This document shows, piece after piece, positions 2,513 to 63,865 of a stretch of DNA of 64,000 bases. Source of the stretch: Bdellovibrionota bacterium (GTDB taxonomy: Bacteria; Bdellovibrionota_C; UBA2361; JAAYZI01); the NCBI GenBank assembly GCA_050950765.1, contig JBMNIF010000002.1, positions 11,738-75,737 of the forward strand, in the 5' to 3' direction. The notes under the pieces are model-generated. The model was not told where the DNA came from. It worked only from the letters and a program-made list of their open reading frames with translations, and searched no databases. Every line of letters starts with the position of its first letter. Within the stretch, counting starts at the first letter, position 1. Position numbers and translations under genes: made by a program.

Positions 2513-4864
2513 CTAATTAGCCGCGTTAAGTTTCCTTATCAGTGTCATGCAATCTTTGGTAAATACTTTTTTGGAAGTCCTCTTAATATTTACCTTCTTG
2601 GATTGTTTTACGCGCAACCTATTGCTTTTGATAGCAGTACTACCAACAGTTATATTTTTATACCTTCTGACAATTCTCGGAAGATCGATAACTTTTAATG
2701 TCGTGCCATTTTCAAGAGAACCAGAAAATTCCGGTCCACATCTCCGTCCGCCCAAAATTAAGTTTAATGGAACTTCTCCGCTACCAGTCCCGATAAGAGA
2801 AATGTTCATCAAGCCGCCTGGGATAGCTTTTCTACTAACAGTACCGTCCTTCCTAACACCTGAAATCTTAATTGAAGAAAGTGTCATCGGAGTTTGATTC
2901 TCTCTCTCTTTATTTTTATCGTCTTCCACAACGGTCTTTACTTGGCAGTTCGGAGTAAATTGCAATGTCATCCCATCATATAAAGATGCGTTGTTATAAG
3001 CGTAGGTATAAGCACTATCACTCGCAGATCCCCGTACTCCAATAGTAGCGGAGGTTGCAACTAAAGAGGCTACTTCCGGCGTAGCAAAGGCATAAGATGT
3101 TTCTATTAAACCCGAAGGATAGAGTGTAACATTCACTGTTACATCGTCTTTATAAATGCTGGCGTAAGAACGAGCGTGCCAAGTGATGCTCTGACTGTTG
3201 GCATCTCCTTTTACCCTAATGCCATGACCTCTTTGCGGAAAAATTAGGTCTGTATGTAAAACGGCGATCGAATTTAGAGGCGCATCTGACCCGTTCCTAT
3301 AATCAGCTGAGCTTTGATTTTGTAAATAAATTACACCGTTTGGAGAGATGGTAATATTCTTGTATGACACACCATAAAACGGGAATTCAAATCCAAGTGT
3401 AACCTCAGGAAATTCTAATTCATCAACGTTAGAGATAATGTCTTCCTCTAGCGAAACATAAGAAGGAGCCTGCCTGCCCTCTGTGGCGCTATATGAACAA
3501 ACGGTCTGATTACCAACTTCTGGCTCTACGTTGCCATTAATCAACCTTCCCAAATTTAAAACCTTACCACTTTCAACAAGACCATCAAGTTTGGTGTTGC
3601 TTGTGCCAGTTTTTTTCAGATGTGCTGTCAGTTCAGTCGGTGTTATCTTCGGATAAAGAGATTTTAACAGGGCAACTGAACCTGTCACAAATGGAGTCGC
3701 CATAGAAGTTCCAGAAAGACTTTTATATGTTCCATTAAGGTAAGTACTAACGATACTAACACCTGGTGCTGCAATAGTTACCGTTTTTGCGCCAAAATTA
3801 GAAAAATCTGCTAAACTTCCACTTCTACCGATAGCACCAACAGAGATAACATTGGCTAAGTTGTAGCCAGCGGGATAAGTTGGTTTTACGTCGTTGTTGT
3901 TACTTTCATTACCTGCTGCTGCAACAAATGTAATCCCTTCGGCTAGTGCTTTTTCTATGGCGTTATACATGACTTGAGAGAACCCCCCACCGCCCCAAGA
4001 ATTATTCATGGCAACGATATTAAATCCTCGCTTCTTCATGGAAACGACATAATTAATGGCCTCAACTGCCCCTGCCAAGCTACCGGATCCTTTTGCGTTA
4101 AGAAATCTACATCCTAGCAACTTTATATTCCAATTTATTCCACTAATACCGATACCGTTATTACCACTAGCACCGATAACTCCCGCTACATGTGTGCCGT
4201 GACCATTGGCATCCATCGGATCTCCTTTTGCGCCGATTGTTGACATGCCATAAACATCATCAATATAGCCGTTACCATCATCATCTATACCGTTACCTGG
4301 AATTTCTCCGTTATTAACCCAGATATTAGCGGCGAGATCCGGATGAGTATAATCGATTCCTGTATCAATTACGGCCACAATCATGTCTTGAGAGCCCGTC
4401 GTGACATTCCAAGCTGTCTCTGTATCGATACCTAAATTCTTACTAAGTCCCCACTGTTCATTAAACTTGCTATCGTTAGGACGTGCAGCTATTGAGATCT
4501 GATAATTTGGAGAACAAGATTTTACAATTCCATTAGCTACGAGTTCTTCACACAGTTGTAAATCTGCAGCATTAACCTCTCTTATGTTTGATTTGGAAGT
4601 ATTTGAGGCGTTATAGCTGTGAGCACCTTTTAAGGTTACTAAACTCGATCCTTCTCCGAGAGGCTTTAGCTCTTGTAAGCCAAAAGAACTAAGTGTCGCT
4701 GCCTCTCCTTGCTGTAAAGCGAAAGGACCTTTTTCGGGTGGTTCAATAACGAACTCTCCTTCATAAACGTAATCAGTAGCAGCATTAGCGTAAAAAGGAA
4801 TAAAGACGGCAAGTAATAACACCGTCCATCGAGGGAATTTACTCAACAAGCAAGACATCAGCAA
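2513..4864 (-). CDS. Secreted subtilisin-like serine peptidase (S8 family) with a long C-terminal extension.
   Basis: The catalytic triad motifs DTGIDYTHPDL, HGTHVAG and GTSMATP are present. There is an N-terminal signal peptide (LLLAVFIPFYANAA). Confidence 0.85.
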   Translation of the reverse strand: MLMSCLLSKFPRWTVLLLAVFIPFYANAATDYVYEGEFVIEPPEKGPFALQQGEAATLSSFGLQELKPLGEGSSLVTLKGAHSYNASNTSKSNIREVNAADLQLCEELVANGIVKSCSPNYQISIAARPNDSKFNEQWGLSKNLGIDTETAWNVTTGSQDMIVAVIDTGIDYTHPDLAANIWVNNGEIPGNGIDDDGNGYIDDVYGMSTIGAKGDPMDANGHGTHVAGVIGASGNNGIGISGINWNIKLLGCRFLNAKGSGSLAGAVEAINYVVSMKKRGFNIVAMNNSWGGGGFSQVMYNAIEKALAEGITFVAAAGNESNNNDVKPTYPAGYNLANVISVGAIGRSGSLADFSNFGAKTVTIAAPGVSIVSTYLNGTYKSLSGTSMATPFVTGSVALLKSLYPKITPTELTAHLKKTGTSNTKLDGLVESGKVLNLGRLINGNVEPEVGNQTVCSYSATEGRQAPSYVSLEEDIISNVDELEFPEVTLGFEFPFYGVSYKNITISPNGVIYLQNQSSADYRNGSDAPLNSIAVLHTDLIFPQRGHGIRVKGDANSQSITWHARSYASIYKDDVTVNVTLYPSGLIETSYAFATPEVASLVATSATIGVRGSASDSAYTYAYNNASLYDGMTLQFTPNCQVKTVVEDDKNKERENQTPMTLSSIKISGVRKDGTVSRKAIPGGLMNISLIGTGSGEVPLNLILGGRRCGPEFSGSLENGTTLKVIDLPRIVRRYKNITVGSTAIKSNRLRVKQSKKVNIKRTSKKVFTKDCMTLIRKLNAAN

Positions 4865-5198: not shown

Positions 5199-5678
5199 TT
5201 AACGTTCCAGTAATGTCAACTCCAAAACACCGCTACTGATGAAACGAGCTAAATTCTTGGCGTTTCTTTCTGCTGCTTCAAGAGTTGCGCTAGGATGATT
5301 TCGATAGCAATCAACAGAATAGGTTGAATCCCCATTTGGCGAGATCCTTCTCCTGACTTCATAGATATACTTTGAATTACTTCCTCTGTTACTGATTAAC
5401 TTAGCGGTATTGATACTTAATTGTGCGTCAGGGATATATTGTCGAAAAAACAACCCTGCTCTCTGCCAAGCGGCAAAATCTTTTTCTAGGGAAAGTTGAA
5501 ATGTAGTTGGCGTCTGGTCAATCTCTGCCAAAGTCTGTTCTTTTTGCGAGATTACTTCCATTTGTAGGTCATTAGCAGAATTGGCGCTACAAGAAGAGAG
5601 TCCTAAAACGGTTAAGATAAGAACAAACTTAATATTTTTTATGTTTATCATAATCGAATCCTTAAATCCGCAGCACAA
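5199..5678 (-). CDS. Hypothetical lipoprotein.
   Basis: Signal peptide with a lipobox-like LGLSSC. No recognisable domain. Confidence 0.45.
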   Translation of the reverse strand: MCCGFKDSIMINIKNIKFVLILTVLGLSSCSANSANDLQMEVISQKEQTLAEIDQTPTTFQLSLEKDFAAWQRAGLFFRQYIPDAQLSINTAKLISNRGSNSKYIYEVRRRISPNGDSTYSVDCYRNHPSATLEAAERNAKNLARFISSGVLELTLLER

Positions 5679-6706: not shown

Positions 6707-6739
6707 ATCAGAGATCATCATCCGGATCTTCCCTAGCTT

Positions 6740-7950
6740 TTTACCCCCATAGAGGATCGTCACTGAAGGGTGGCACCAGATTTTTAACCCCCGTCAAGAT
6801 CTAGCTAGCTCGTTTCGCTGTATCAGCCCGTCCTAGCGTCCCTGAAGGGTGGCACCAGTGATAAAGCCAACTAATCCGCCCAAACTGGTGGGTGGCACCA
6901 AATTCATCACCTGCTTGCTAGAAGCTTTTTGCTTAAAAAGCCTATTAGAATCAAACTATTATGACATAACTAGTTGTTTAGGAGCCTCTAGCTTCAGCTT
7001 TCAATAAAGAAGGGTGGCACCAGTGATAACCCCGCCCTGCTGTCCCTGAAGGGTGGCACCAGATTTTTAACCCCCGTCAAGATCTAGCTAGCTCGTTTCG
7101 CTGTATCAGCCCGTCCTAGCGTCCCTGAAGGGTGGCACCAGTGATAAAGCCAACTAATCCGCCCAAACTGGTGGGTGGCACCAAATTCATCCCAAATTCA
7201 TCACCTGCTTACTGAGAAGCTTTTTGCTTAAAAAGTCTATTAAAATCAAACTATTATGACATAACTAGTTGTTTAGGAGCCTCTAGCTTCAGCCTTCAAT
7301 AAAGAAGGGTGGCACCAGATTTTTAACCCCCGTCAAGATCTAGCTAGCTCGTTTCGCTGTATCAGCCCGTCCTAGCGTCCCTGAAGGGTGGCACCAGTGA
7401 TAAAGCCAACTAATCCGCCCAAACTGGTGGGTGGCACCAAATTCATCACCTGCTTGCTGAGAGCTTTTTGCTTAAAAAGTCTATTAAAATCAAATTATTA
7501 TGACGTAACTAGCTGTTTAAAAACCTCCAACTTCACCAACTTCAGCCTTCAATAAAGAAGGGTGGCACCAGATTTTTACCAGCTTCAGCCTTCAATAAAA
7601 AAGGGTGGCACCAAATTTTCCAAATTTTCAGCCTCTTTTTAGTTGCAGCCCGTTCCCGTCAAGACCCAACCAATTCGCTTTTCAGTTCAGCCCGTTCAGC
7701 CGTCCCTGAAGGGTGGCACCAAATTCATCACCTCCGTCAAGACCCAACCAATTCGCTTTTTAGTTGCAACCCGTCCAGCCGTCCCTGAAGGGTGGCACCA
7801 GTTTTTTAACCCCCGTCCAGATCTAGCTAGCTCGTTTCGCTGTATCAGCCCGCCCAATCGTCCCTGAAGGGTGGCACCAGTTTTTTAACACTAAATTTTA
7901 ACCCCAACTTCAGCCTTCAATAAAAAAGGGTGGCACCAAATTTTCAGCCC
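6740..7950. repeat. Array A of a mosaic short-repeat family: about 16 copies of the core GAAGGGTGGCACCA(A/G)ATT within a roughly 250-290 bp higher-order unit repeated about four times.
   Basis: Seen directly in sequence. The array fills the entire convergent intergenic region between CDS 5834-6706 (+) and ispF (-). Confidence 0.95.
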
Positions 7951-7962
7951 TATCAGATCTCT

Positions 7963-23454: not shown

Positions 23455-25863
23455 ATGCAAAAGAGGAAACGATTTTCAGGTTCGACACTGAATAAGACAA
23501 AACAACCACTTCGTAAAAAAAAAGGGCGTAAAAAGAAGATCAATAAACGACGCCTTTTTATTTTAGTCTGTGTAGTCTTTTTACTTCTCTCTATCTGCGG
23601 ACTATTTTTATCGTACCTGTACGTAGACAATATGGTCTATCGGCATTTGCAAAATAAGTTACAAAAACAGGAGGGGATGGCTTTTTCAGCGCCGTTTACG
23701 TTACAAAGCGGAATGCGTATCTCTGCGGATGTTCTCACACAAACGTTAAGAACTAGGGGATATATTAACGGCACTGGTTCAGTTATTAATCAGGGAGAGT
23801 TTAAGGTACAAGGAAGTGTCTTTAAGATCTATGCCAGAGGGTTTACTGATGCTGAAAATCTCTATCATTCCCCACAAATTTACACTTATGATACAGCCAC
23901 AACAAAGCTATTAACGATCGATCAGAACGAAGAAGAACTTCTACTTGAACCTATTCCGATCTCATCTCTCGCCTCAGGGGAGCACCGTGCTAGCTCTTAT
24001 CTTGCACTGGAAGAAATCCCAAAAAATGTACAACAAGCTGTTATTACCATAGAGGATGAACGCTTTTTTAACCATTCTGGGATAGATCTGATCGGTATTT
24101 TGCGTGCTGTGTTTGCAAATATTAAAGCCGGTTCTATCGTACAGGGTGGAAGCACACTAACTCAGCAACTAGCAAAGAACACCCTTTTTACACCACGCAA
24201 AACGTTGGGACGCAAAATCCTTGAAGCTTTAGCCGCCATTAGTCTTGAAAAGCGTCTTTCTAAAAATGAGATCTTGGAACGGTATCTGAATGAAGTTTAT
24301 CTCGGGCAAGAAGGCTCGGTAGCGATTCATGGAGTAGCAGAAGCGGCGGAGACGTTTTTTGATAAAAAAATAGCAACTATCAATACCTCAGAAGCTGCTC
24401 TTTTAGCAGGGATTATCAAGGCACCATCATATTATTCTCCAAAGCGACACCTAAAACGTGCTCTTAATAGACGTGAGATTGTTTTAAAAAAGATGATAGA
24501 GAATGGGGCTATCTCCGTAGAAGAGGGAGCTGCTGCGCTTCAGTATATACCGAAAATTAAGGAGGGATATACACACACTCCGTTAGCACCTTATTTTCAT
24601 GTAGCGCTATTAAAAGATCTTGAAGAGAAGATTAATTTAGATGTTACGGCATTAAGTGGTATGCGAATCTACACAGGACTAAGTCCAGAACTGCAAAAGT
24701 GTGCAACAGCTGCTATTGCAGAAGAGTTACCGGCCATAGAAGAACGGTATCCAGCTTTAAAACGTAAGAAATCACCTCTAGCGGCAGCACTCGTTGCCAT
24801 AGAACCACACAGCGGATTGATTAAAGCATGGGTTGGCGGCAGGAATTATGCCACGAATCAATTCGATCACGTCTCTCAAGGTTTTAGGCAGATCGGATCT
24901 ACGGTAAAACCTTTTTTATATCTTACAGCTTTAGACGGCGGTTTAAACACTTATAAAGTTGCCACTGCTGATAGTATTCTGCCTGATAAACCGACAATTT
25001 TTACATTACCGAATAATAAAACTTGGACTCCTCTTAATTATGATAAGAAGTATCACGGTGATGTTACGTTACGTTATGCTTTGGAAAAGTCTTTAAATAT
25101 TCCTGCGGCGTATATTGGCGGTAAGGTCGGTGTTAAAGCTTTAGCGCATACCCTCTCTATTTTTCATATAGCAGAAGATATTCCAGAGGTACCGGCAATC
25201 ACATTAGGTGCTATTGATACCAGCCTATTAAAACTTACCGCTGCCTATGGTGCCTTAGCTAATAGCGGCATCTATGTTACTCCGCGACTTTTTTCAAGTG
25301 TGATAGATCGCACTGCCACTACTATTGCGAAGACCCCTTTTCAAGAGGAACGACTTTCTGATGAAGGTGCAGTCTATGTTTTAACTAATATCTTACAAGG
25401 TGTAGTAGATCGTGGTACTGGAGCTGCTATTAGAAGACTTGGATATAAAAGAGCGGCGGCTGGAAAAACCGGCACTTCAGATAATGCACGAGATGCGTGG
25501 TTTGTTGGGTATACTCCGAACCTTGTTGCGGGTGTCTGGCTTGGTTTTGATGACAATAAGAAGATAGGTGTAACTGGTGGCGGAGTGGCTGCACCGATCT
25601 GGGCTAATTTTATGAAGTGTTCTGAGCCGTTTTTGCAAGATTCTCAATTTATTCCACCTGATAATGTTGTTTTTGTTAGGATCGATTCTCTAACGCACAG
25701 GCGTGCTGATCGTTATACACCGCCGGATCGCGTAATTAGAGAGGTTTATGTTAAAGGAACTGAGCCGCCCGAATATTTTAATGATTCTCAATCGGATGAA
25801 TACGATCTTCCGACTCCACGACGACCTAAACGCAGAAGCTTTTGGGACCTCTTCGACTGGTAG
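23455..25863 (+). CDS. mrcA: Class A penicillin-binding protein 1A (transglycosylase/transpeptidase).
   Basis: The glycosyltransferase motifs EDERFFNHSGID and the transpeptidase motifs SGSTVKP and KTGT. N-terminal TM anchor. Confidence 0.9.
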   Translation: MQKRKRFSGSTLNKTKQPLRKKKGRKKKINKRRLFILVCVVFLLLSICGLFLSYLYVDNMVYRHLQNKLQKQEGMAFSAPFTLQSGMRISADVLTQTLRTRGYINGTGSVINQGEFKVQGSVFKIYARGFTDAENLYHSPQIYTYDTATTKLLTIDQNEEELLLEPIPISSLASGEHRASSYLALEEIPKNVQQAVITIEDERFFNHSGIDLIGILRAVFANIKAGSIVQGGSTLTQQLAKNTLFTPRKTLGRKILEALAAISLEKRLSKNEILERYLNEVYLGQEGSVAIHGVAEAAETFFDKKIATINTSEAALLAGIIKAPSYYSPKRHLKRALNRREIVLKKMIENGAISVEEGAAALQYIPKIKEGYTHTPLAPYFHVALLKDLEEKINLDVTALSGMRIYTGLSPELQKCATAAIAEELPAIEERYPALKRKKSPLAAALVAIEPHSGLIKAWVGGRNYATNQFDHVSQGFRQIGSTVKPFLYLTALDGGLNTYKVATADSILPDKPTIFTLPNNKTWTPLNYDKKYHGDVTLRYALEKSLNIPAAYIGGKVGVKALAHTLSIFHIAEDIPEVPAITLGAIDTSLLKLTAAYGALANSGIYVTPRLFSSVIDRTATTIAKTPFQEERLSDEGAVYVLTNILQGVVDRGTGAAIRRLGYKRAAAGKTGTSDNARDAWFVGYTPNLVAGVWLGFDDNKKIGVTGGGVAAPIWANFMKCSEPFLQDSQFIPPDNVVFVRIDSLTHRRADRYTPPDRVIREVYVKGTEPPEYFNDSQSDEYDLPTPRRPKRRSFWDLFDW

Positions 25864-26075
25864 AGGTTAAAAATTTGGTGCCACCCTTCAGGGACAGCAG
25901 GACGGGCTGATACTACAAAGCGAAGTCAGCTAGATCTTTACGAGGGTTAAAAATTTGGTGCCACCCACTAGGGACAGCAGGACGGGCTGCAATGCAGAGA
26001 GGAAAATTTGGTGCCACCCACCAGTGCTAAAAGACTCTAAAACTACGATAGATAATAATATCAAGATGTTAGCAA
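25864..26075. repeat. Array B of the mosaic repeat family (3 cores, GGTGCCACCC orientation). It is truncated by the IS insertion.
   Basis: Starts immediately after the mrcA stop codon and ends at the IS left target-site duplication. Confidence 0.9.
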
Positions 26076-27903
26076 CCTAAATTCCGCAATTTTTATCTTT
26101 TCTCCATTCCAGAAATAAGCCACCGTATTTTTTATTGATATTTTAGTTAGTTATATATTTTTCTATATTGACATTTCCTGTTTGTATGGTATGATTGCCC
26201 TATACATATTAGGGAGGTTTTTTATGAAAAAAATAACTAAAAAAGTTGACTTACCAGATAGGCAAATTGCTCGTAAGAAAAACAAAAATGGGACTACTTA
26301 TATCTATTACAGGATGAACTTTCGTCGTGAAAACGGAGAGCCTACGTTTGATGAAATAGGTATAGGGAAGCTAGATGAAAGCGGTAAGAAATTAATTCCT
26401 AATAGAAATTACTATGATTTGTTTCCAGATGATTCTAATAGATATGTTATTAGCAATAAATCTTTTGGTCTTACTTATGTTTTAAATAAGATTGTAAAAG
26501 ATTTAAGGTTAGACAAGACATTGCTTTCAATTTTTGGAAATGACACATACGAGATTTTAACTTTAGCGTTTTATATTCTAGCAAATGGAAATGTAGTATC
26601 ACATGCTTCAAGTTGGATAGATGATAGTGTCTTACCATATGAAATTTCTGAATTAACAAGTCAAAAAATAAGTCGTCTTTTTGAACGTATTGACTACGAG
26701 AAAAGACTTAATTTTTTTAAGAAATGGACGAAGCGATATTTAGCTCAAGAATGTTGGTATTATGACGTAACTTCCATATCTTCTTATAGTAAAAAAATAA
26801 GCATATTGGAGTTTGGCTATAATAGGGATATGGATAAATTGCCGCAAATAAATATAGGTATGTGCTACGGCTCTACAACGAAGCTTCCTTTATTCTATCA
26901 AGTTTATAATGGCAGCATTACAGATAAGACATATTTTAGTTTTCTTTTAAGAGACTTTCCATTTATTAGTCTTAATAATCGTATTAACCTTGTTACGGAT
27001 CAAGGTTTTGTGACGCAAGATAATTTAGCGGAAGTAGCAAATGAAGAAGGGCAAAAGTTTGGACTACTTTGTCCTTTGCCACTATATTGGAATGACGCTA
27101 AAAGAATATTAGAAAATCACACTGCACTTATTAAGCAAGATGCTAATTATATAAAAGGAACCTCTACTTTTGGTTGTTCTGTAATAGATACTGTTATGGG
27201 ACAACCTGTAAAGATTTATGTTTATTACAATATGGGAAAGGCGCCATATGAGATAGTTCAATTTTACGAGAAAATTTCTAGAATGGAAGAAGAGTTAGAA
27301 GAACTGAAAAAATTAAAATACTCTTTGCTGGATCGTAAAAAATATAGGAAATATTTTGATATTAAAATAAATGAAGATGGTTTCACTTATGAAAAAAAAT
27401 CAGAAGCTATAGATGAATACTTGAGAAATTGTGGCTTCTTAATTTTGATTGGTATTGGTTGTGATTCAAATCCGAGTGAAGCACTTTTTCGTTATCGTCA
27501 AAAAGATGTAATTGAAAAACAATTTTTCCAGCTAAAAAATGAAATTGATTTTAGAAGACTTAAAACACATAATCTTCAAACCACAGAAGGAAAACTTTTT
27601 GTTGGATTTTTAGCTCTTATACTTAGAAGTTATATTCTTAATTTACTTAAAAATGATACAAGGCAAAAAAAGTTTAATATACCTGATGTCATTAAAGAGC
27701 TTCAAAAAATTAAAGTTATAGAAACTAAAAATGGCAGTAAATTAATGGTTCCGTTAACAAAAAAACAAAAGGATATTTTGAAAATTTTCAATATTGAAGA
27801 AGATGACTTTCTAAAAAGTATTTTTAAGAAAAAGTAAGATTATACCGCTCGAAAGCTACCTTTAAAAACACGTTTGTATGGTATAATTTCGCGGGAATTC
27901 AGG
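26076..27903 (+). mobile_element. Insertion sequence of the IS4 superfamily, about 1.83 kb.
   Basis: Imperfect terminal inverted repeats (CCTAAATTCCGCAATTTTTAT versus CCTGAATTCCCGCGAAATTAT). Flanking 7-8 bp direct repeat (G)TTAGCAA at 26068-26075 and 27903-27910. Joining the two flanks recreates an intact repeat module seen elsewhere at 28160-28240. Confidence 0.8.
26224..27837 (+). CDS. DDE transposase, IS4/IS1634-like.
   Basis: About 540 aa with a DDE-type core (...YYDVTS..., ...LVTDQGF...) and a C-terminal YRQKDVIEKQFFQLK segment. The likely start is MKKIT. Confidence 0.8.
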   Translation: MKKITKKVDLPDRQIARKKNKNGTTYIYYRMNFRRENGEPTFDEIGIGKLDESGKKLIPNRNYYDLFPDDSNRYVISNKSFGLTYVLNKIVKDLRLDKTLLSIFGNDTYEILTLAFYILANGNVVSHASSWIDDSVLPYEISELTSQKISRLFERIDYEKRLNFFKKWTKRYLAQECWYYDVTSISSYSKKISILEFGYNRDMDKLPQINIGMCYGSTTKLPLFYQVYNGSITDKTYFSFLLRDFPFISLNNRINLVTDQGFVTQDNLAEVANEEGQKFGLLCPLPLYWNDAKRILENHTALIKQDANYIKGTSTFGCSVIDTVMGQPVKIYVYYNMGKAPYEIVQFYEKISRMEEELEELKKLKYSLLDRKKYRKYFDIKINEDGFTYEKKSEAIDEYLRNCGFLILIGIGCDSNPSEALFRYRQKDVIEKQFFQLKNEIDFRRLKTHNLQTTEGKLFVGFLALILRSYILNLLKNDTRQKKFNIPDVIKELQKIKVIETKNGSKLMVPLTKKQKDILKIFNIEEDDFLKSIFKKK

Positions 27904-28372
27904 TTAGCAAAAGCTTCGGGCTTGGCGAATTTGGTGCCACCCACCAGTAAGACGGGATCTGGCAGATTTGGCAGGGCTTGGATCTGGTGCCACCCACTAG
28001 AGACAGCAGAGCGGGCGCAACTTGCAGATCAAATCGGTTAGATCTCTACGGAATTTACTACCACTCGCTAGGGACAATTGAGCGGGCTGATACGGCAAAA
28101 TAAATCAGCTAGATCTATACGGAGGAGGTTAAATTTTGGTGCCACCCACCAGTGCTAAAAGACTCTAAAATTACGATAGCTAATAATATCAAGATGTTAG
28201 CAAAAGCTTCGGGCTTGGCGAATTTGGTGCCACCCACTAGGGACAGCAGGACGGGCTGCAATGCAGAGAGGGATCAGCTAGATCTCTACGAGGGTTAAAA
28301 ATTTGGTGCCACCCACTAGAGACAATTGAGCGGGCTGATACGGCAAAATAAATCAGCTAGATCTATACGGAG
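27904..28372. repeat. Array C of the mosaic repeat family (about 6 cores) with an internal duplication of about 250 bp.
   Basis: Runs from the IS right end to 7 bp before the map stop codon. Confidence 0.9.
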
Positions 28373-28378
28373 GAAAAA

Positions 28379-29173
28379 CTAGCAGTTTTTACATGGGATT
28401 ACTTCATCAGCTGCTTTTGTTAGCACCTCGCAACCTGTTTCAGTCACTAGGATTGTATGCTCCCACTGCGCAGACAAGCTGCCATCTGCTGTGCGAACAG
28501 TCCAACCATCCAACTCCGATAAGACCGTTTCGTGTGTACCGCCGTTTATCATCGGTTCAATGGTAAACGTCATCCCTGGTCGCATCACCTCTCCCGTGCT
28601 GAACTTTCCAACGTGAAGAACTTGTGGCGGCTCGTGAAAATTTCTTCCAAGCCCGTGCCCAGTATAATCTCTGACAATTCCGTAATGCGTTCCCGTTTTT
28701 TTAATAAACGCTTGAATAGCAGCGCCAATATCACCGATGCGTTTACCCGGTACAACTTCGGCAATTCCTGCATACATAGCATCTTTAGCTGTTTTTACCA
28801 GTTTAATAGCCTCTTCTGAGCAGTTACCTACAAAATACATCCTGCTGGAATCTGAATGGAAGCCGTTTTTTATAGATGTTACATCAATATTTACGATATC
28901 CCCCTCTTTTAATACAAGATATTGACTGGGAATACCGTGACACACCACATCATTAATTGAGATACAAACAGACTTCGGGAAACCCTTATAATTAAGGGGT
29001 GCTGGGATAGCACCTGCTTCAATAGTTAATTTATGAACGAAGCGGTTAATCTCTTCCGTTGAAACCCCTGGTTTAACTAAATCTCCAACAACATCAAGGA
29101 CATGAGTAGTCACTTTGGAAGCAGCACGCATTGCTACAATCTCTTCGGCTGTTTTTATCGGAACTCTTGCCAT
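28379..29173 (-). CDS. map: Methionine aminopeptidase type I.
   Basis: Metal-ligand motifs and the ...HGIP...VLKEGDIVNIDVT... and ...TGHGLG... segments. The likely start is MARVP. Confidence 0.9.
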   Translation of the reverse strand: MARVPIKTAEEIVAMRAASKVTTHVLDVVGDLVKPGVSTEEINRFVHKLTIEAGAIPAPLNYKGFPKSVCISINDVVCHGIPSQYLVLKEGDIVNIDVTSIKNGFHSDSSRMYFVGNCSEEAIKLVKTAKDAMYAGIAEVVPGKRIGDIGAAIQAFIKKTGTHYGIVRDYTGHGLGRNFHEPPQVLHVGKFSTGEVMRPGMTFTIEPMINGGTHETVLSELDGWTVRTADGSLSAQWEHTILVTETGCEVLTKAADEVIPCKNC

Positions 29174-38257: not shown

Positions 38258-38349
38258 TCCTTTTCTTCAGATTAACTAAGCACCCCACCCCAAACTAAAA
38301 CCCCTCTCAAAGCCTAATTGATCTACTTTTCAGCATCAGCCAGCCTACT

Positions 38350-38810
38350 TTTTTAACCTCCGTAGAAATCTAGCCGATCCCGTTCTGCTGTTGCAGCCAG
38401 CCCTGCTGTCCCTGAAGGGTGGCACCAAATTTTTGACCTTCGTGAAAACCTAACCGATTCGTTTTGTAGTGACAGCCCGTTCAATCGTCCCTGAAGGGTG
38501 GCACCAAATTCGCCAAATGCTAAGCTTTTGCTAACGTCTTGATATTATTGGCTATCCTAATTTCAGAGTCTTGTAGCACTGGTGGGTGGCACCAAATTTC
38601 CGCTGCTGTCCCTGAAGGGTGGCACCAAATTTTCTGGTGGGTGGCACCAAATTTTCCCTCGTGAAAACCTAACCAACTTGCTTTTTAATATCAGCCCGCT
38701 CAATCGTCCCTAGCGAGTGGTAGTAAATTCCGTAGAAATCTAGCCGATCCCGTTCTGCAGTTGCAGCCACCCCAATCATCCCTAAAGGGTGATGGTAAAT
38801 TTCTTTAACT
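38350..38810. repeat. Array D of the mosaic repeat family (about 5 intact and 2 degenerate cores, GGTGGCACCA orientation).
   Basis: Lies between the duplicated membrane-protein genes P1 and P2. Confidence 0.9.
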
Positions 38811-38927
38811 TTACGATTTTTGGTATAACTTACAATGATATGAGAGGAAATTGAGCCCTTATAAAAGGTTTTTATAAGAGGTTCCTCCCCGTTCTTTAAC
38901 AATTGAAAGGATATAAGGAATATAAGG

Positions 38928-42224: not shown

Positions 42225-44495
42225 TTATCTTTTTATCACACTGTTTAAAGCCGATCCCGCCTTGAACCACACCACCTGATCAGCGGTTAAGGTATGTTGC
42301 AACGGTATCTCATAACTTTCTCCTTGCGACACTCCCTTCAAAATCAACCTTGATTGCGGAGCGATCTCTGCGATCCCTTCGATACAAAAAATATCTTCAG
42401 CAGAAATTTTTTCATAATCTTCAGGATTAACAAAAGTTAGCGCTAACAACCCCTGCTTCTTCAGATTAGTTTCATGAATCCTAGCAAAACTCTTCGCAAT
42501 CACAGCTCGACATCCCAGATAACGGGGCTCCATAGCAGCATGCTCCCTTGAAGAACCCTCTCCATAGTTTTCATCAGCAACGATGATCCAACCGACGCCC
42601 CTCTCCTTGTAATCAGCAGCAAGCTTAGGGATAGGTTGCCCCTCCTCCCCACTAAATAAATTCCTGCCACTTCCAACCTCAGCGGTAAAAGCATTCACTG
42701 CACCTAAAAGCATATTATTCGAGATATTCGGAAGATGTCCTCTATACTTCAACCAAACTCCCGCCTGTGAAATATGATCCGTCGTGCACTTTCCTTTAAC
42801 TTTCAACAATAAACGGAGATCTTGGAAATCCTCTATTTTCCAAACACAGAACGGCTCCAACTTTGCCAAACGATCACTTTTAGGATCTATCTCCACCTCT
42901 ATCTTTAAACGTTCTTCGAGCGTCAAGTTCGGTGCTGTAAAACCACTCCGATCTATTTCAAAGTTTTCTTGCGGAAGAGGTTGCCCTAGTGGAGGGTTAA
43001 ACGCCACCTCAGATCCAACACTATTTTTCAGCTTATCAGTAACAGGATTAAAAGTTATCCTCCCTGCTATGGCAGCCATCGTTACAAGCTCAGGAGAGCC
43101 GATAAAATTTAAAGTCTCTTCATTGCCATCATTCCGTTTGCGAAAGTTCCTATTATAACTGGTCACTATTATATTCTGTTTTCCAGCAGTAGCAGGATCT
43201 CTCTTCCATTGCCCGATACACGGTCCGCAAGCGTTCGCTAGAACTATCGCTCCCAGATCCAATAACGGCTTTAAAAAACCATCTCTCTCAACGGTACGAC
43301 GTACCTGATCTGAACCGAGAGTAACAAAAAAAGGACATCTCGCTTTTAGTCCATTTTTTAAAGCTTCCTGCGCCACAGCTGCAGCACGACTGATATCTTC
43401 ATAAGATGAATTAGTGCAACTTCCTATTAAAGCGGCGCTAATCTGATCAGGATAACTGTTTTCTGCAATAAAGTGCGGCATCTCCGAAACAGTATGCAGC
43501 AGATCGGGCGTGTGTGGTCCAACCCACCCTGCTTCAAGTGTATTTAAATCCACCTCTATGACGTGATCGAAATACGCTTGCGGATCTTGCTCCACTTCAG
43601 GATCTGCTCTCAACTCCCCCCTAACACCATCTGCACACTCCGCTATCAATTCTCTAGCTGTTTTTCTAAGGTATTGAGACCCTCGCTCGTCATAAGGAAA
43701 GATTGAAGCAGTTGCACCGATCTCCGCCCCCATATTAGTGATTGTAGATCGCCCTGTTGCACTAATTGTTTCAACTCCACTACCGAAATATTCCAAAACT
43801 TTTCCCGTGCCGCCCTTCACCTTTAAGATGGAGGCGATACGCAAAATAATATCTTTCGGAGAAGCCCAAGCACGCAACTTACCTGTCAGATGCACACCGA
43901 TAATCTCAGGGTTTAAAAGTCCCCACGGCAATCCCGCCATCACATCAACAGCATCCGCACCACCTACACCTACGGCGATCATCCCCAACCCTCCACCGTT
44001 CGGTGTATGAGAATCTGTCCCTACTATCATCCCCCCTGGAAAAGCGTGTTGCTCGAAAACCACCTGATGAATAATACCAGCTCCAGCACGCCAAAATCCG
44101 ATCCCGTAACGTAGAGCAGCACTCTTTAAGAAAGTATAAACCTCTTCATTCTCCTCAAGAGCCCTTTCTAAATCTTTTTTTGCACCAACTTCAGCTCTTA
44201 TTAAGTGATCACAATGGATCGTTGTCGGCACCTGCACACTATCAAGTCCAGCTGTCATAAATTGCAGCATCGCCATCTGTGCCGTAGCATCCTGCATAAT
44301 AACCCTATCCGGTGCAAAGATTAATGTATCACGCCCCCGTTGCGGAGCCTCTTGCGGTACCTCTCGTAAATGAGAGAAAAGAACTTTTTCTGCAAAAGTT
44401 AATGGTCTCCCCCAACTTTTACGAATAGCTTCACACCGCTTAGGAAATGCTACATAAAAATTTCTCACAAAATCACCGTTATCCGCCTCGCTCAT
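42225..44495 (-). CDS. acn: Aconitate hydratase, mitochondrial-type (about 756 aa).
   Basis: Matches the mitochondrial-aconitase pattern from PLTFAEKVLFSHL through DRVIMQDATAQMAMLQF...GTDSHTPNGGGLG... and on to the Fe-S cysteine ligands. Confidence 0.9.
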   Translation of the reverse strand: MSEADNGDFVRNFYVAFPKRCEAIRKSWGRPLTFAEKVLFSHLREVPQEAPQRGRDTLIFAPDRVIMQDATAQMAMLQFMTAGLDSVQVPTTIHCDHLIRAEVGAKKDLERALEENEEVYTFLKSAALRYGIGFWRAGAGIIHQVVFEQHAFPGGMIVGTDSHTPNGGGLGMIAVGVGGADAVDVMAGLPWGLLNPEIIGVHLTGKLRAWASPKDIILRIASILKVKGGTGKVLEYFGSGVETISATGRSTITNMGAEIGATASIFPYDERGSQYLRKTARELIAECADGVRGELRADPEVEQDPQAYFDHVIEVDLNTLEAGWVGPHTPDLLHTVSEMPHFIAENSYPDQISAALIGSCTNSSYEDISRAAAVAQEALKNGLKARCPFFVTLGSDQVRRTVERDGFLKPLLDLGAIVLANACGPCIGQWKRDPATAGKQNIIVTSYNRNFRKRNDGNEETLNFIGSPELVTMAAIAGRITFNPVTDKLKNSVGSEVAFNPPLGQPLPQENFEIDRSGFTAPNLTLEERLKIEVEIDPKSDRLAKLEPFCVWKIEDFQDLRLLLKVKGKCTTDHISQAGVWLKYRGHLPNISNNMLLGAVNAFTAEVGSGRNLFSGEEGQPIPKLAADYKERGVGWIIVADENYGEGSSREHAAMEPRYLGCRAVIAKSFARIHETNLKKQGLLALTFVNPEDYEKISAEDIFCIEGIAEIAPQSRLILKGVSQGESYEIPLQHTLTADQVVWFKAGSALNSVIKR

Positions 44496-59953: not shown

Positions 59954-60227
59954 GGAGCAGAACCGTTAGGGTATTTTTTCGCTATTTAATAAGCTAATAA
60001 GAGAGTCATTATAAAAACAATAAAAAAGCGTACATTGTACTGTTTTTCTTTATGAAAACTCTCCTTCCAAAAAGCATTAATTTTGTAAGATCTTAGGATT
60101 GCTCTCTTACAATTAACTTTTTGCTTAAAGACCGTTTTCTGCGCTATATTAAGCACAGGATTTTTTAAAAAAAAGATTCTGTAACTTCCCATTACTTAAC
60201 CTGTTATTTCTTATTTTAGGAATATTG

Positions 60228-62976
60228 ATGAGAACGTTCTATATCTACGCCGGAAGAGGTACTATGGATCCTGTTGCTGGCATCATTATCACAACAAAAT
60301 GCGGTTTATGGGCATGGGAATACTTTCGGGAGATGTTAACTGAACTAGCAGATATGTTGTCTGTTCGTTTTTCCGGTTGCTTTTTTACCCGTGAAGGGAT
60401 CTGCTACATCGCTTTAACCACAGATGATTCATCAGCAGATCTTTTGGTCAGCACCTTTTACTCATCACTCTCATTTATCTTTCCCGATCTAGAGATACAT
60501 GAAATGCCAGATTTCATAGATGAGATAACTCCTGATATGGAGGTAGCCTCTACGGAATTACGTTTTAAACGTAATTTCATCTTTCCAACTACTACGGGTG
60601 CAGAGTTAAAAGTCGACTCTCTAGCTCCATTAGCTAACGCTATGGTGAACTTCCCTCCTGAAGATAGAGTATATCGTACAAACTATTATGCGCCCCCTAA
60701 AAGATGATGTTTGGTTACAATTCTACATTGCGATAAACAGGGTCTTGGATCACATCAAGCATAAATTTGATGTTAAGTACTGGTTTAAAAGAGATGTTGT
60801 TGAATACATGTATGAACGGGTAGAGAAAAAGTGTAAAGACAGATTTTACGAAGCAACTATCCGTTTAGTTGCTTTTAAAAAATGTGAGCAAACTCCTGCT
60901 GCAAGAAAGGAGACGCGCGAGATATTAAAAAAGCGACTTTCTTCGATGGTTGGCGCTTATTCTTTTTTAAATCAGACAGATCTTAATAAGTACGTTCCGA
61001 CACCTGTTGTGTACGGTGAGCGCGCCTTAAGACCGTTAAAAAGACGCACCTTCGGACATAAGATACTAGTGACACCCATCGAGCTTGCTGCCGCTTGGCA
61101 CCCCACAGGTGATTTCTCCAATATGCCGAGGGTCTTGGCAAAACACTACGCCCCGCCACCAGAGATGCCACAAGAAGAGGGCGATCCAAATGTCTGCTTC
61201 TTTGCCCGTACTAATTTCAGAGAAACTAGGGTTCCTTTCGGATTTAGCCGCCCCGATCGTAGAAAACACCTTTATGTACTCGGCAAATCAGGAACTGGGA
61301 AATCATCCATGTTACAACTACTCATCAAGAGCGACATGGAGAATGGGCACGGTCTAGCTGTAATCGATCCACACGGAGATCTGATAAACAATCTTTTAAA
61401 GCTTGTTCCGAAAAACAGGGTTGATGATGTTATTATTTTAGATCCTGCCGACAGAGACTTTCCTGCTAGCTTTAATCCATTAGCTTGGGTGCCGGAACAT
61501 TTAAGGATGTCGGTAACGTTAGGAATCGTTGCTATTTTCAAGAAGTTGTTAGGCGAGAGGTGGAATGAGCATGTAGACTATTTAGTGCGTTTTACTGTCT
61601 CAGCTTTACTTAGCACTCACGATGCTACCTTGATGTCAATTCCGAAAATTCTAACAGATGTACGGTACAGAACAGCTGTGGCAGGTGTTGTAAGCGACAG
61701 TGGCATCAGAAAATTCTGGCTGCACGCTTTTGATTCATGGTCAGAAGCTCATCAAGCTGATGCTATAATTCCACTTATAGACGTTTTACGTCACTTCTTA
61801 TCATCAGACATGATCAGAAATATCGTCGGGCAACCTGTAAATCGCTTTGATTTCAGGTCTATTATGGACAATAAAAAGATCCTACTTGTTAAAGTTTCAA
61901 AAGGGCTGCTCGGAGATGAAAATGCCACCCTTTTCGGCTCTCTCGTTGTTAGCAAGATCTATCAAGCTGCTATGTCAAGAGCTGATATCCCGCAGGAAGA
62001 AAGGAAAGATTTTTATTTTTACATCGATGAATTCCAAACTTTTGCATCTGAAAACGTTAAAGATATGTTGGCAGAATCGCGCAAATATCACCTTAATTTA
62101 ACTTTAGCACATCAGTTTTTAAAGCAGCTGCCGAGCGATGTTAGTAACACCATCTTCGGCAATGTTGGAAATTTCGTTACATTCTGCGTCAGCGGAGATG
62201 ATGCAGGCACTGTTTCAAGAGAATTATCAAACGAGTTTGACCTTGTATCATTAACAAGTCTGCCGTTACGAGAGTTTTATGTAAAGATGTTGGTTAATGA
62301 CAAACCTACTAAGCCCTTCTCCGGAACAACTTTAACAATTAAATATCCGGATAATAACTGCGCTGATGAGTGTGTTAACGCTTCTAGAAGTAAATATGCC
62401 GTTCCTCTAAAACAGGCTAAAGATATGATTCTCCGTTGGAGGAAAGGTGACACCTCTTTTATCAAACCTGAAATGTTCGCAGAGCTTAAGATCGATCTAC
62501 GCCAACACCTGAGACGGCACGAAAGTGTCTTACAACTTTCAGATCTGGATATTACTGATGAGCATTTATTGCAATTAAGTCATACCGCTTTTGATAATGT
62601 CAGAGAATTGCTCTTAAGTAATACGCACATTACAGACAAGGGCTTGATTTCGATAGCTAACTTACGGAATCTTACTCACCTTTTCCTTGACGGCACTGAT
62701 ATTACTGATGACGGCTTAAAAGCGATCATGATGCTACCACGCTTGCAGATCCTAAATCTTAGTAGGACAGCGGTTTCAGGTGTTGGGCTTGCAACTCTAC
62801 GAGGATCCGAGATTAGAAAACTAATCCTACGGGAAACTAGGCTGACCGATAGTGGCTTAGATTGCCTGACTGAATTTAAACAATTAGCAGAAGTGGCTTT
62901 AGAGGGAACTGCTATTTCTGACAAAGCCTTCGATATACTTTGCTCGAACTTACCTAATGTTAATATTCACGCCTAA
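60228..62976 (+). pseudogene. Copy 2 of the ATPase-LRR gene, about 85% identical to copy 1, with a frameshift near 60690 (ORFs 60225-60707 and 60688-62976).
   Basis: The same domain order and the same motifs (YVLGKSGTGKSS, VIDPHGDL, ESRKYHLNLTLAHQF, LRRs). The reading frame switches in a C5/AT region relative to copy 1. Confidence 0.6.
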
Positions 62977-63069: not shown

Positions 63070-63865
63070 GTTAAAAATCTGGTGCCACCCTTCTTTTTTG
63101 CCGCTTTGGCGGCTTAAGCGATTTGACGCGATAGTTCGGCGAATTTGGTGCCACCCACCAGTTAAAGTGGGTGTCCTAATTGGGGCAGGGGTCGAAAATT
63201 TGGTGCCACCCACCAGTGCTAAAAAACTCTAAAATTGTAATAGCTAATAATATCAGTATGTTAGCAAAAGTCCTGCATTCGGCGAATTTGGTGCCACCCT
63301 TCTTTGTTGCAGGCTGTCGCTGGTGCCACCCACTAGGGACGATTGAACGGGTGGACGAATTTGGTGCCACCCACCAGTTAAAAGTGGGTGTCCTAATTGG
63401 CAGCTAGTAATATCAGTATGCTAGTAAAAGTCCTACATTCGGCGAATTTGGTGCCACCCTTCTTTTTTGCCGCTTTGACGGCTTTGGTCAAAAATTTGGT
63501 GCCACCCTTCAGTTTGAGCGGATCTTAACGGCTTGTCACTGGTGCCACCCACCAGTGTTACAAGACTCTAAAATCAGGATAGCCAATAATATCAAGATGT
63601 TAGCAAAAGCTTAGCATTCGGCGAATTTGGTGCCACCCTTCAGGGACAGCAGGACGGGCTGCAACTGCAAAACAGATCGGTTAGGTTTCTACGGAGGTTA
63701 AAAATTTGGTGCCACCCTTTAGGGACAATTACCCTCCACCCACTAGGGGCGCTTGAGCGGGCTGATACAGAAAAGCGAATTAGCCAGATTTTCTACGGAG
63801 GTTAAAAATTTGAGCGGGCTACAACTGCAAAACGGATTCGGCTAGGTTTCTACGGAGGTCAAAAC
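63070..63865. repeat. Array E of the mosaic repeat family (about 11 cores, GGTGCCACCC orientation) with embedded small hairpins.
   Basis: Seen directly in sequence. Lies between the end of ATPase-LRR copy 2 (+) and a minus-strand ORF that ends at 63869. Confidence 0.9.

Follow-up and report, generated by a model that had tools for sequence, protein, structure and literature searches.

An IS1634-family insertion sequence interrupts a unit of a pre-existing repeat array in the mrcA-map spacer of a Bdellovibrionota bacterium

A 64,000-nucleotide stretch of contig JBMNIF010000002.1 from a Bdellovibrionota bacterium (hereafter the window) was analysed around an insertion sequence (IS) lying between the convergent genes mrcA and map. 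The element is a complete IS of the IS1634 family (26076-27903, + strand, 1828 bp), which entered a pre-existing intergenic repeat unit by transposase-mediated insertion and left an empty site that can be reconstructed. We consider it highly probable that an autonomous IS1634-family DDE element transposed into an 88-nt unit of a mosaic array already present in the mrcA-map spacer, and that the array served as a passive landing site. The mrcA gene (23455-25863, + strand) encodes PBP1A, a class A penicillin-binding protein with transglycosylase and transpeptidase domains, and map (28382-29173, - strand, stop codon at 28379-28381, likely ATG at 29173) encodes a type I methionine aminopeptidase. 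The 2.5-kb spacer between these genes contained nothing besides short repeat units and the single 1828-bp element, in agreement with a previous reading made from the sequence alone (the sequence-only reading), which had divided it into repeat array B, the IS and repeat array C.

The ends of the element are imperfect inverted repeats (CCTAAATTCC... and ...GGAATTCAGG), as had been proposed. The left end, CCTAAATTCCGCAATTTTTAT, was located at 26076-26096 and occurred only once in the window, and the right end, ...ATAATTTCGCGGGAATTCAGG, closes at 27903. The left terminal repeat reads CCTAAATTCCGCAATTTTTATC (26076-26097, + strand) and the right one, as the reverse complement, CCTGAATTCCCGCGAAATTATAC (27881-27903, - strand). 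Nine of the outermost 10 nt match, and the similarity extends to approximately 22 nt with a 1-nt indel. A degenerate pattern fitting both ends had two matches in the window, which were precisely the ends of the IS. The target-site duplication TTAGCAA is present on both sides (26069-26075 and 27904-27910, no strand being assigned), and the chance probability of such a 7-bp flanking repeat is about 6e-5. Deletion of 26076-27910, i.e., the IS together with one copy of TTAGCAA, regenerated an 88-nt repeat unit of the type designated beta. This IS-less reconstruction could be aligned without gaps to four intact beta units of the window, at 28131, 38600 (reverse complement), 63195 and 63534, in all of which GTTAGCAAAAG is uninterrupted. 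The exact match over the rejoined junction comprised 23 nt on the left and 34 nt on the right, and the 54-nt empty-site string given in the sequence-only reading had a single exact match, at 28182-28235. The claim of an insertion into a pre-existing repeat unit is thus upheld, and the intact beta unit at 28131-28220 (+ strand) provides an internal reference for the empty site.

Further copies of the element were found via the exact transposase protein and its 90% cluster; the contigs compared are denoted by L numbers. The element was carried by 25 further contigs at 99.0-100% nucleotide identity, three of which matched the window copy at 1827 of 1827 positions. The same or nearly the same protein was found under at least seven NCBI transposase accessions within a narrow accession range, with a longest carrier contig of 1.25 Mb, and we infer that these represent several copies in one Bdellovibrionota metagenome-assembled genome (MAG). 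Proteins MGI6523865, MGI6524128, MGI6524586, MGI6524791, MGI6524758, MGI6523894 and MGI6524200 are among them. As the IS is longer than a read, short-read contigs pair its flanks arbitrarily; each junction was therefore treated separately and the duplications were paired across contigs. The census yielded 15 distinct left and 12 distinct right flanks, corresponding to 15-21 distinct sites. Direct repeats of 6-7 bp were present at paired junctions of other copies. Duplications of 7 bp comprised ATGCCAA (left flank in L005, right flank in L006 and L008) and TTAAGAA (left in L003, right in L004) in addition to TTAGCAA of the window, and cross-contig pairing gave the 6-bp duplications TTATAA, TAACAA and CTGCAA. 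In a register control, three 7-mer matches were obtained in register, versus none in 16 shifted registers. The left flanks ended with AA in 14 of 15 cases and the right flanks began with TT in 9-10 of 12, which indicates TT-N(2-3)-AA as the preferred target.

The census also determined the exact boundaries of the element. The sequence-only reading had given the duplication as 7-8 bp. TTAGCAA was confirmed at both junctions, whereas the eighth base, a G, is IS sequence in every other copy. The 8-bp version, GTTAGCAA, was rejected: all right flanks come after ...CAGG, and at neither the ATGCCAA nor the TTAAGAA site is the left copy preceded by a G. The IS accordingly terminates with this G, which leaves a duplication of 7 bp. 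An alternative placement of the ends as AACCT...AGGTTA, with a duplication of 2-3 bp, was discarded as well, since the copy at the ATGCCAA site reads AGG|ATG and not AGG|TTA.

A genome scan detected two loci, L009 (100% amino acid and 99.9% nucleotide identity) and L010 (87% and 89%, respectively), neither of which had a clean duplication. L010 comes from a separate, second Bdellovibrionota MAG. L009 is a public MAG contig labelled 'uncultured Gammaproteobacteria', a name that is probably a binning label. A metagenome scan with the degenerate two-end pattern gave 20 matches and no close copy in a collection that lacks relevant samples. The one relative that it recovered, a distant one from an unrelated metagenome (L022, 169-1934), has near-perfect 28-nt terminal repeats, CCTAAATTCCCGCAAAATTATACTATAC, so the left repeat of the window element is the degenerate one. 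In L053, a 1440-bp IS3-family element (3307-4746, HTH_Tnp_1 and rve open reading frames (ORFs)), flanked by a 4-bp duplication, splits the IS copy behind its position 1609. The outer flanks of this IS copy have just TTAT in common and a neighbouring ORF is truncated, which points to an IS-mediated rearrangement.

The transposase gene (26224-27837, + strand) encodes 537 aa, from an ATG at 26224 to a stop codon at 27835-27837, and is preceded by the ribosome-binding site (RBS) GGGAGG (26212-26217). A 551-aa ORF starting from TTG represents a mechanical maximum only, and the 537-aa version was preferred. The protein matched the NCBIfam equivalog NF033559 'IS1634 family transposase' with 236.9 bits (cutoff 100) over profile positions 16-482 of 483, and its match to Pfam DDE_Tnp_1 was weak (25.4 bits, residues 198-377). 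An identical protein in NCBI is named 'IS1634 family transposase [Bdellovibrionota bacterium]', and, apart from the 87%-identical copy in L010, the nearest protein outside the 90% cluster of the transposase was 58-59% identical. The window transposase was aligned with 18 homologues of 34-87% identity to locate the catalytic residues. Among these 19 sequences, D181 of the DDE triad D181/D259/E431 was invariant and both D259 and E431 were present in at least 90%. The YREK motif is a variant, Y424-(2)-K427-(3)-E431-(6)-K438, in which lysine replaces arginine; Y424 and K438 were invariant in the same alignment. The earlier description of an intact transposase of about 540 aa is supported, with D181, D259, E431 and K438 conserved.

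The IS1634 family, which was split from IS4, comprises elements of 1500-2000 bp with C-----YT ends, AT-rich duplications of 5-6 bp and a YREK motif mostly without arginine (PMC2266710, De Palmenaer et al. 2008). The length of the window element (1828 bp) and its ends, CCTAAATT and CCTGAATT, agree with this description. Its duplications are AT-rich at all six paired sites, three of them with 7 bp and three with 6 bp, compared with a published range of 5-6 bp. The element deviates from the strict definition of IS4 by the lysine in place of arginine and by duplications of 6-7 bp instead of approximately 8-13 bp. The assignment to the 'IS4 superfamily' in the sequence-only reading consequently holds in the older, wider sense, and the NF033559 match places the element more precisely in the IS1634 family. 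This so far unnamed element is a new member of a known family. It shares with IS1634 of Mycoplasma mycoides and IS1549 of Mycobacterium smegmatis the full-length match to the family hidden Markov model, a single DDE transposase of about 540 aa, the 1.8-kb length, the C-----YT ends, short AT-rich duplications and a YREK motif without arginine (K427). It differs from the family in having duplications of 6-7 rather than 5-6 bp and in its host, an uncultured Bdellovibrionota lineage. IS1634 and IS1549 show long duplications of variable length (8-514 bp), whereas the window element shows none of this kind.

A candidate transposase promoter, TTGACA-16 nt-TATGAT with an upstream TG (11 of 12 positions matching), was predicted at 26168-26195 (+ strand) and is kept in L010, the 89%-identical relative. 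The element would be transcribed from this predicted promoter of its own. The RBS overlaps the 3' arm of a small hairpin, CCCTATACATATTAGGG (26198-26214, + strand), and may be masked by it when transcription reads in from mrcA. The IS also contains an internal 17-nt direct repeat, GTTTGTATGGTATRATT, one copy of which covers the -10 region of the promoter (26180-26196), while the other, GTTTGTATGGTATAATT (27872-27888, + strand), matches that region at 16 of 17 positions. The second copy provides an outward-facing extended -10 element, TGgTATAAT (27879-27887), in which TATAAT (27882-27887) lies 16 nt from the IS end at 27903. It is also part of the right terminal repeat, which is conserved in both L010 and L022. 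This predicted outward -10 would read into array C, antisense to map.

The repeat arrays on both sides of the IS are part of a larger set. Array B (25864-26075, + strand) begins immediately 3' of the mrcA stop codon and consists of two complete units (25872-25951 and 25952-26004) followed by the 5' portion of the beta unit that the IS interrupts (26005-26075). Array C (27904-28375, + strand) contains the 3' rest of this unit (27904-27927) and six more units, one of which, at 28052, has a degenerate core; the last unit stops a few bases short of the map stop codon. Around the mrcA stop codon (25846-25886), the sequence CTGGTAGAGGTTAAAAATTTGG resembles the 3' end of the array units, CTACGAGGGTTAAAAATTTGG, which suggests that the array adjoins or slightly overlaps the coding end of mrcA. 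Four mosaic arrays were identified in the window (6707-7962, - strand; 25864-28378, + strand; approximately 38330-38830, - strand; 63079-63865, + strand). They comprise 41 units with a total length of about 3.2 kb, all intergenic, and, with the IS removed, account for 5.2% of the DNA and 24% of the non-coding DNA of the window. All units start with GGTGCCACCC; the body behind it belongs to one of a small number of types that recur in several arrays, and its length is fixed by type (79-80, 88, 43, 53 or 122-134 nt).

The arrays are more unusual than the IS. Their core, GGTGCCACC, is merely a 4+1+4 palindrome and the units are not clear palindromes. We rejected the possibility that the units are structured RNAs, since their folding was not significant (z-scores from -1.5 to +0.3) and no compensatory pairs were found among 12 alpha units. 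An Rfam search of the arrays gave no match, even at E <= 1. The reverse complement of the core reads GGGTGGCACCA, which resembles a tRNA 3' end; this interpretation was dismissed, as ARAGORN and Rfam reported two ordinary tRNAs in the window and none in the arrays. No gene for a REP-associated tyrosine transposase (RAYT, a Y1 transposase; REP, repetitive extragenic palindrome) was found within the 64-kb window. Five ORFs of about 160 aa were considered as RAYT candidates and rejected: three encode IspF, signal peptidase II and a LysM protein, and those at 60225-60704 and 5202-5678 had no Pfam match. The viral contigs scanned for the array core gave no matches, and a literature search on the core string and on intergenic repeats of Bdellovibrionota returned nothing relevant.

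The sequence-only reading had further suggested that the arrays act as safe-haven targets for ISs, a claim that is reduced by the junction census to a passive effect at most. Array-type sites accounted for three of the 15-21 sites, namely the window site, the left flank of L045 together with the right flank of L044, and the right flank of L046. Among the metagenome contigs, this corresponded to 2 of 15 left and 3 of 12 right flanks, in three different unit types. Three array hits fit the 24% share of the arrays in non-coding DNA (binomial P = 0.75-0.92) and are marginally above their 5.2% share in all DNA (P = 0.04-0.09). The copies outside arrays lie in or near genes: the ATGCCAA site is inside ORFs called on L005 and L006, the ORF adjoining the L053 copy is the truncated one mentioned above, and the copies in L001 and L009 are located about 35 nt from gene ends. 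Together with the array hits at the level of the non-coding share, these positions indicate that the arrays are tolerated rather than recognised targets. ISs that recognise REPs have most of their copies in the repeat at a conserved position (PMC1525189), a pattern that the window element does not show.

We weighed this conclusion against the possibility that the IS recognises the repeats, like ISRm22, ISPpu9/10 or IS1397, for example via beta DNA bent by integration host factor (IHF), which would make the arrays hot spots. Precedents exist, REPs being known targets of IS elements from five families (PMC1525189). In addition, three independent sets of array-type junctions were found, with a frequency marginally above the share of the arrays in all DNA, and the beta unit contains a perfect IHF consensus (TATCAAGATGTTA, 26059-26071, + strand) whose 3' end is overlapped by the target duplication. 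On the other hand, the remaining 12-18 sites lie in ordinary unique DNA that is in part coding, the three array hits differ in unit type and position, the four further intact beta units of the window are unoccupied, and the hit frequency does not exceed the non-coding share of the arrays. Recognition of the repeats is accordingly very unlikely. The IHF consensus WATCAANNNNTTR had 17 matches in the window versus 5.5 expected, of which seven were in array units of two unrelated module types (beta: 26059, 28187, 38532 and 63590; gamma: 6949, 7244 and 7488). These modules resemble the IHF-binding modules of enterobacterial bacterial interspersed mosaic elements (BIMEs) and the IS sits at the edge of the consensus. 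On this basis, the arrays could be viewed as an undescribed BIME-like system, in which an IHF-bent beta module is the preferred entry point for ISs and the arrays are landing pads that spare genes, a proposal that we find distinctly doubtful.

The presence of an IS inside REP- or BIME-like repeats is an already known behaviour. One parallel is ISRm22 (IS4 family) of Sinorhizobium meliloti, all nine copies of which are in REP clusters (PMC1525189, Tobes & Pareja 2006). Like the window element, it is an IS4-related DDE element that occupies extragenic repeat clusters flanked by convergent genes and has a target that is palindromic in part; it differs in that the window element has only about 15-20% of its sites in arrays and the rest in unrelated sequence. 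IS1397 and ISKpn1 (IS3 family, in Escherichia coli BIMEs) as well as ISPpu9, ISPpu10 and ISPa11 (IS110 family, in Pseudomonas REPs) are similarly placed within a mosaic intergenic repeat whose intact form serves as the empty-site reference. These elements recognise the repeat, by the transposase or a guide RNA, at one fixed position, in contrast to the window element, which belongs to another family and has the loose target TT-N(2-3)-AA. The arrays themselves share with the enterobacterial BIMEs and RIP (repetitive IHF-binding palindromic) elements an extragenic location, concentrated at the 3' ends of convergent genes, and a composition of few discrete modules, some with an IHF consensus. They have the extragenic, clustered and mosaic character of REPs and BIMEs and lack imperfect palindromes with stable hairpins, their units being without significant folding or covariation. 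They also differ from REPs in having no sequence similarity to known REPs, no Rfam match and no RAYT gene in the window.

Continuity with unique flanking sequence was evaluated in independent assemblies. L011 extends without a break from unique mrcA sequence across the left junction; L014, L015 and L017, obtained from three samples, likewise connect the right junction to unique map sequence. We considered that a multi-copy IS might have been misjoined to a multi-copy array during assembly. Both are indeed repeats, and L002 and L007 join the window right flank to foreign left flanks, so chimeras do occur. A misjoin would, however, be expected to produce neither a perfect 7-bp duplication nor the exact restoration of the unit, and the junctions reach into unique mrcA and unique map sequence, which renders an assembly artefact extremely improbable.

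All four assemblies reaching a junction (L011, L014, L015 and L017, from three Joint Genome Institute samples) carried the insertion. No empty allele was found among the assemblies reaching the site; L012, L013 and L016 end at the first repeat. The insertion is thus young as judged by mutations and looks fixed in the sampled population. The description of the insertion as recent in the sequence-only reading is supported by the perfect duplication and the copies identical at 1827 of 1827 positions, and is weakened by the occurrence of the same insertion in all four assemblies without an empty allele. The suggestion that the element may still be active gained support, as the presence of 99-100% identical copies at numerous sites speaks for activity that is recent or continuing; judged from these sequences, the element is probably still mobile. 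Alternatively, the window copy may be real but old, fixed and no longer mobile at its locus, with the identity among copies resulting from gene conversion or a single past burst. The presence of the insertion in every sample reaching the site would be in line with this explanation, as would the disruption of the L053 copy by an IS3-family element. A population with 0.55% divergence in the IS (L047) has a right junction compatible with the window site, but its 42-nt flank cannot distinguish the interrupted unit from the unit at 28196. The perfect duplication, the intact ORF and promoter, the three contigs that are 100% identical across 1827 bp and the many distinct sites across samples argue against an old immobile copy, which we regard as rather unlikely.

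Several observations weigh against a mobile IS1634-family element that is passively tolerated by the arrays. The three array sites among 15-21 slightly exceed the 5% share of the arrays in the DNA, a share estimated from one 64-kb window, so a mild preference is possible. The duplications of 6-7 bp run one base beyond the 5-6 bp of the family. The activity of the element is inferred from sequence identity. Most short-read contigs with two flanks (L001, L009, L043, L044 and L056) had no matching duplication, and L053, an 8-kb contig, also lacked a 7-bp duplication. We attribute the missing duplications to chimeric assembly over the 1.8-kb repeat; IS-mediated rearrangements would look alike.

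With the insertion into a passively tolerated array retained as the preferred explanation, the transposase would make staggered cuts 6-7 bp apart at AT-rich TT-N(2-3)-AA targets, which are common everywhere. Insertions would persist where the harm is small, for instance in repeat-filled spacers between convergent genes, and the array would then be a tolerated landing place rather than a recognised target.

The host belongs to a poorly sampled lineage, as judged by its distant aconitase relatives. The aconitase (42228-44495, - strand) is of the mitochondrial type (TIGR01340, 1010 bits); its nearest database relative is 68% identical, and the best named relatives, from Oligoflexia and Bdellovibrionota MAGs, show approximately 60-62% identity. 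The present analysis contributes an as yet unnamed IS1634-family member from a phylum that has been sampled poorly and describes a clean insertion with an internal empty-site reference. The ends of the element, its 6-7-bp duplication and the TT-N(2-3)-AA pattern are now usable for annotation, and the insertion explains the breaks of short-read assemblies at the mrcA-map locus. The arrays are older than the IS and accommodate a foreign insert of 1.8 kb between two essential genes, so that the scope for a strictly spacing-dependent function of the arrays is limited.

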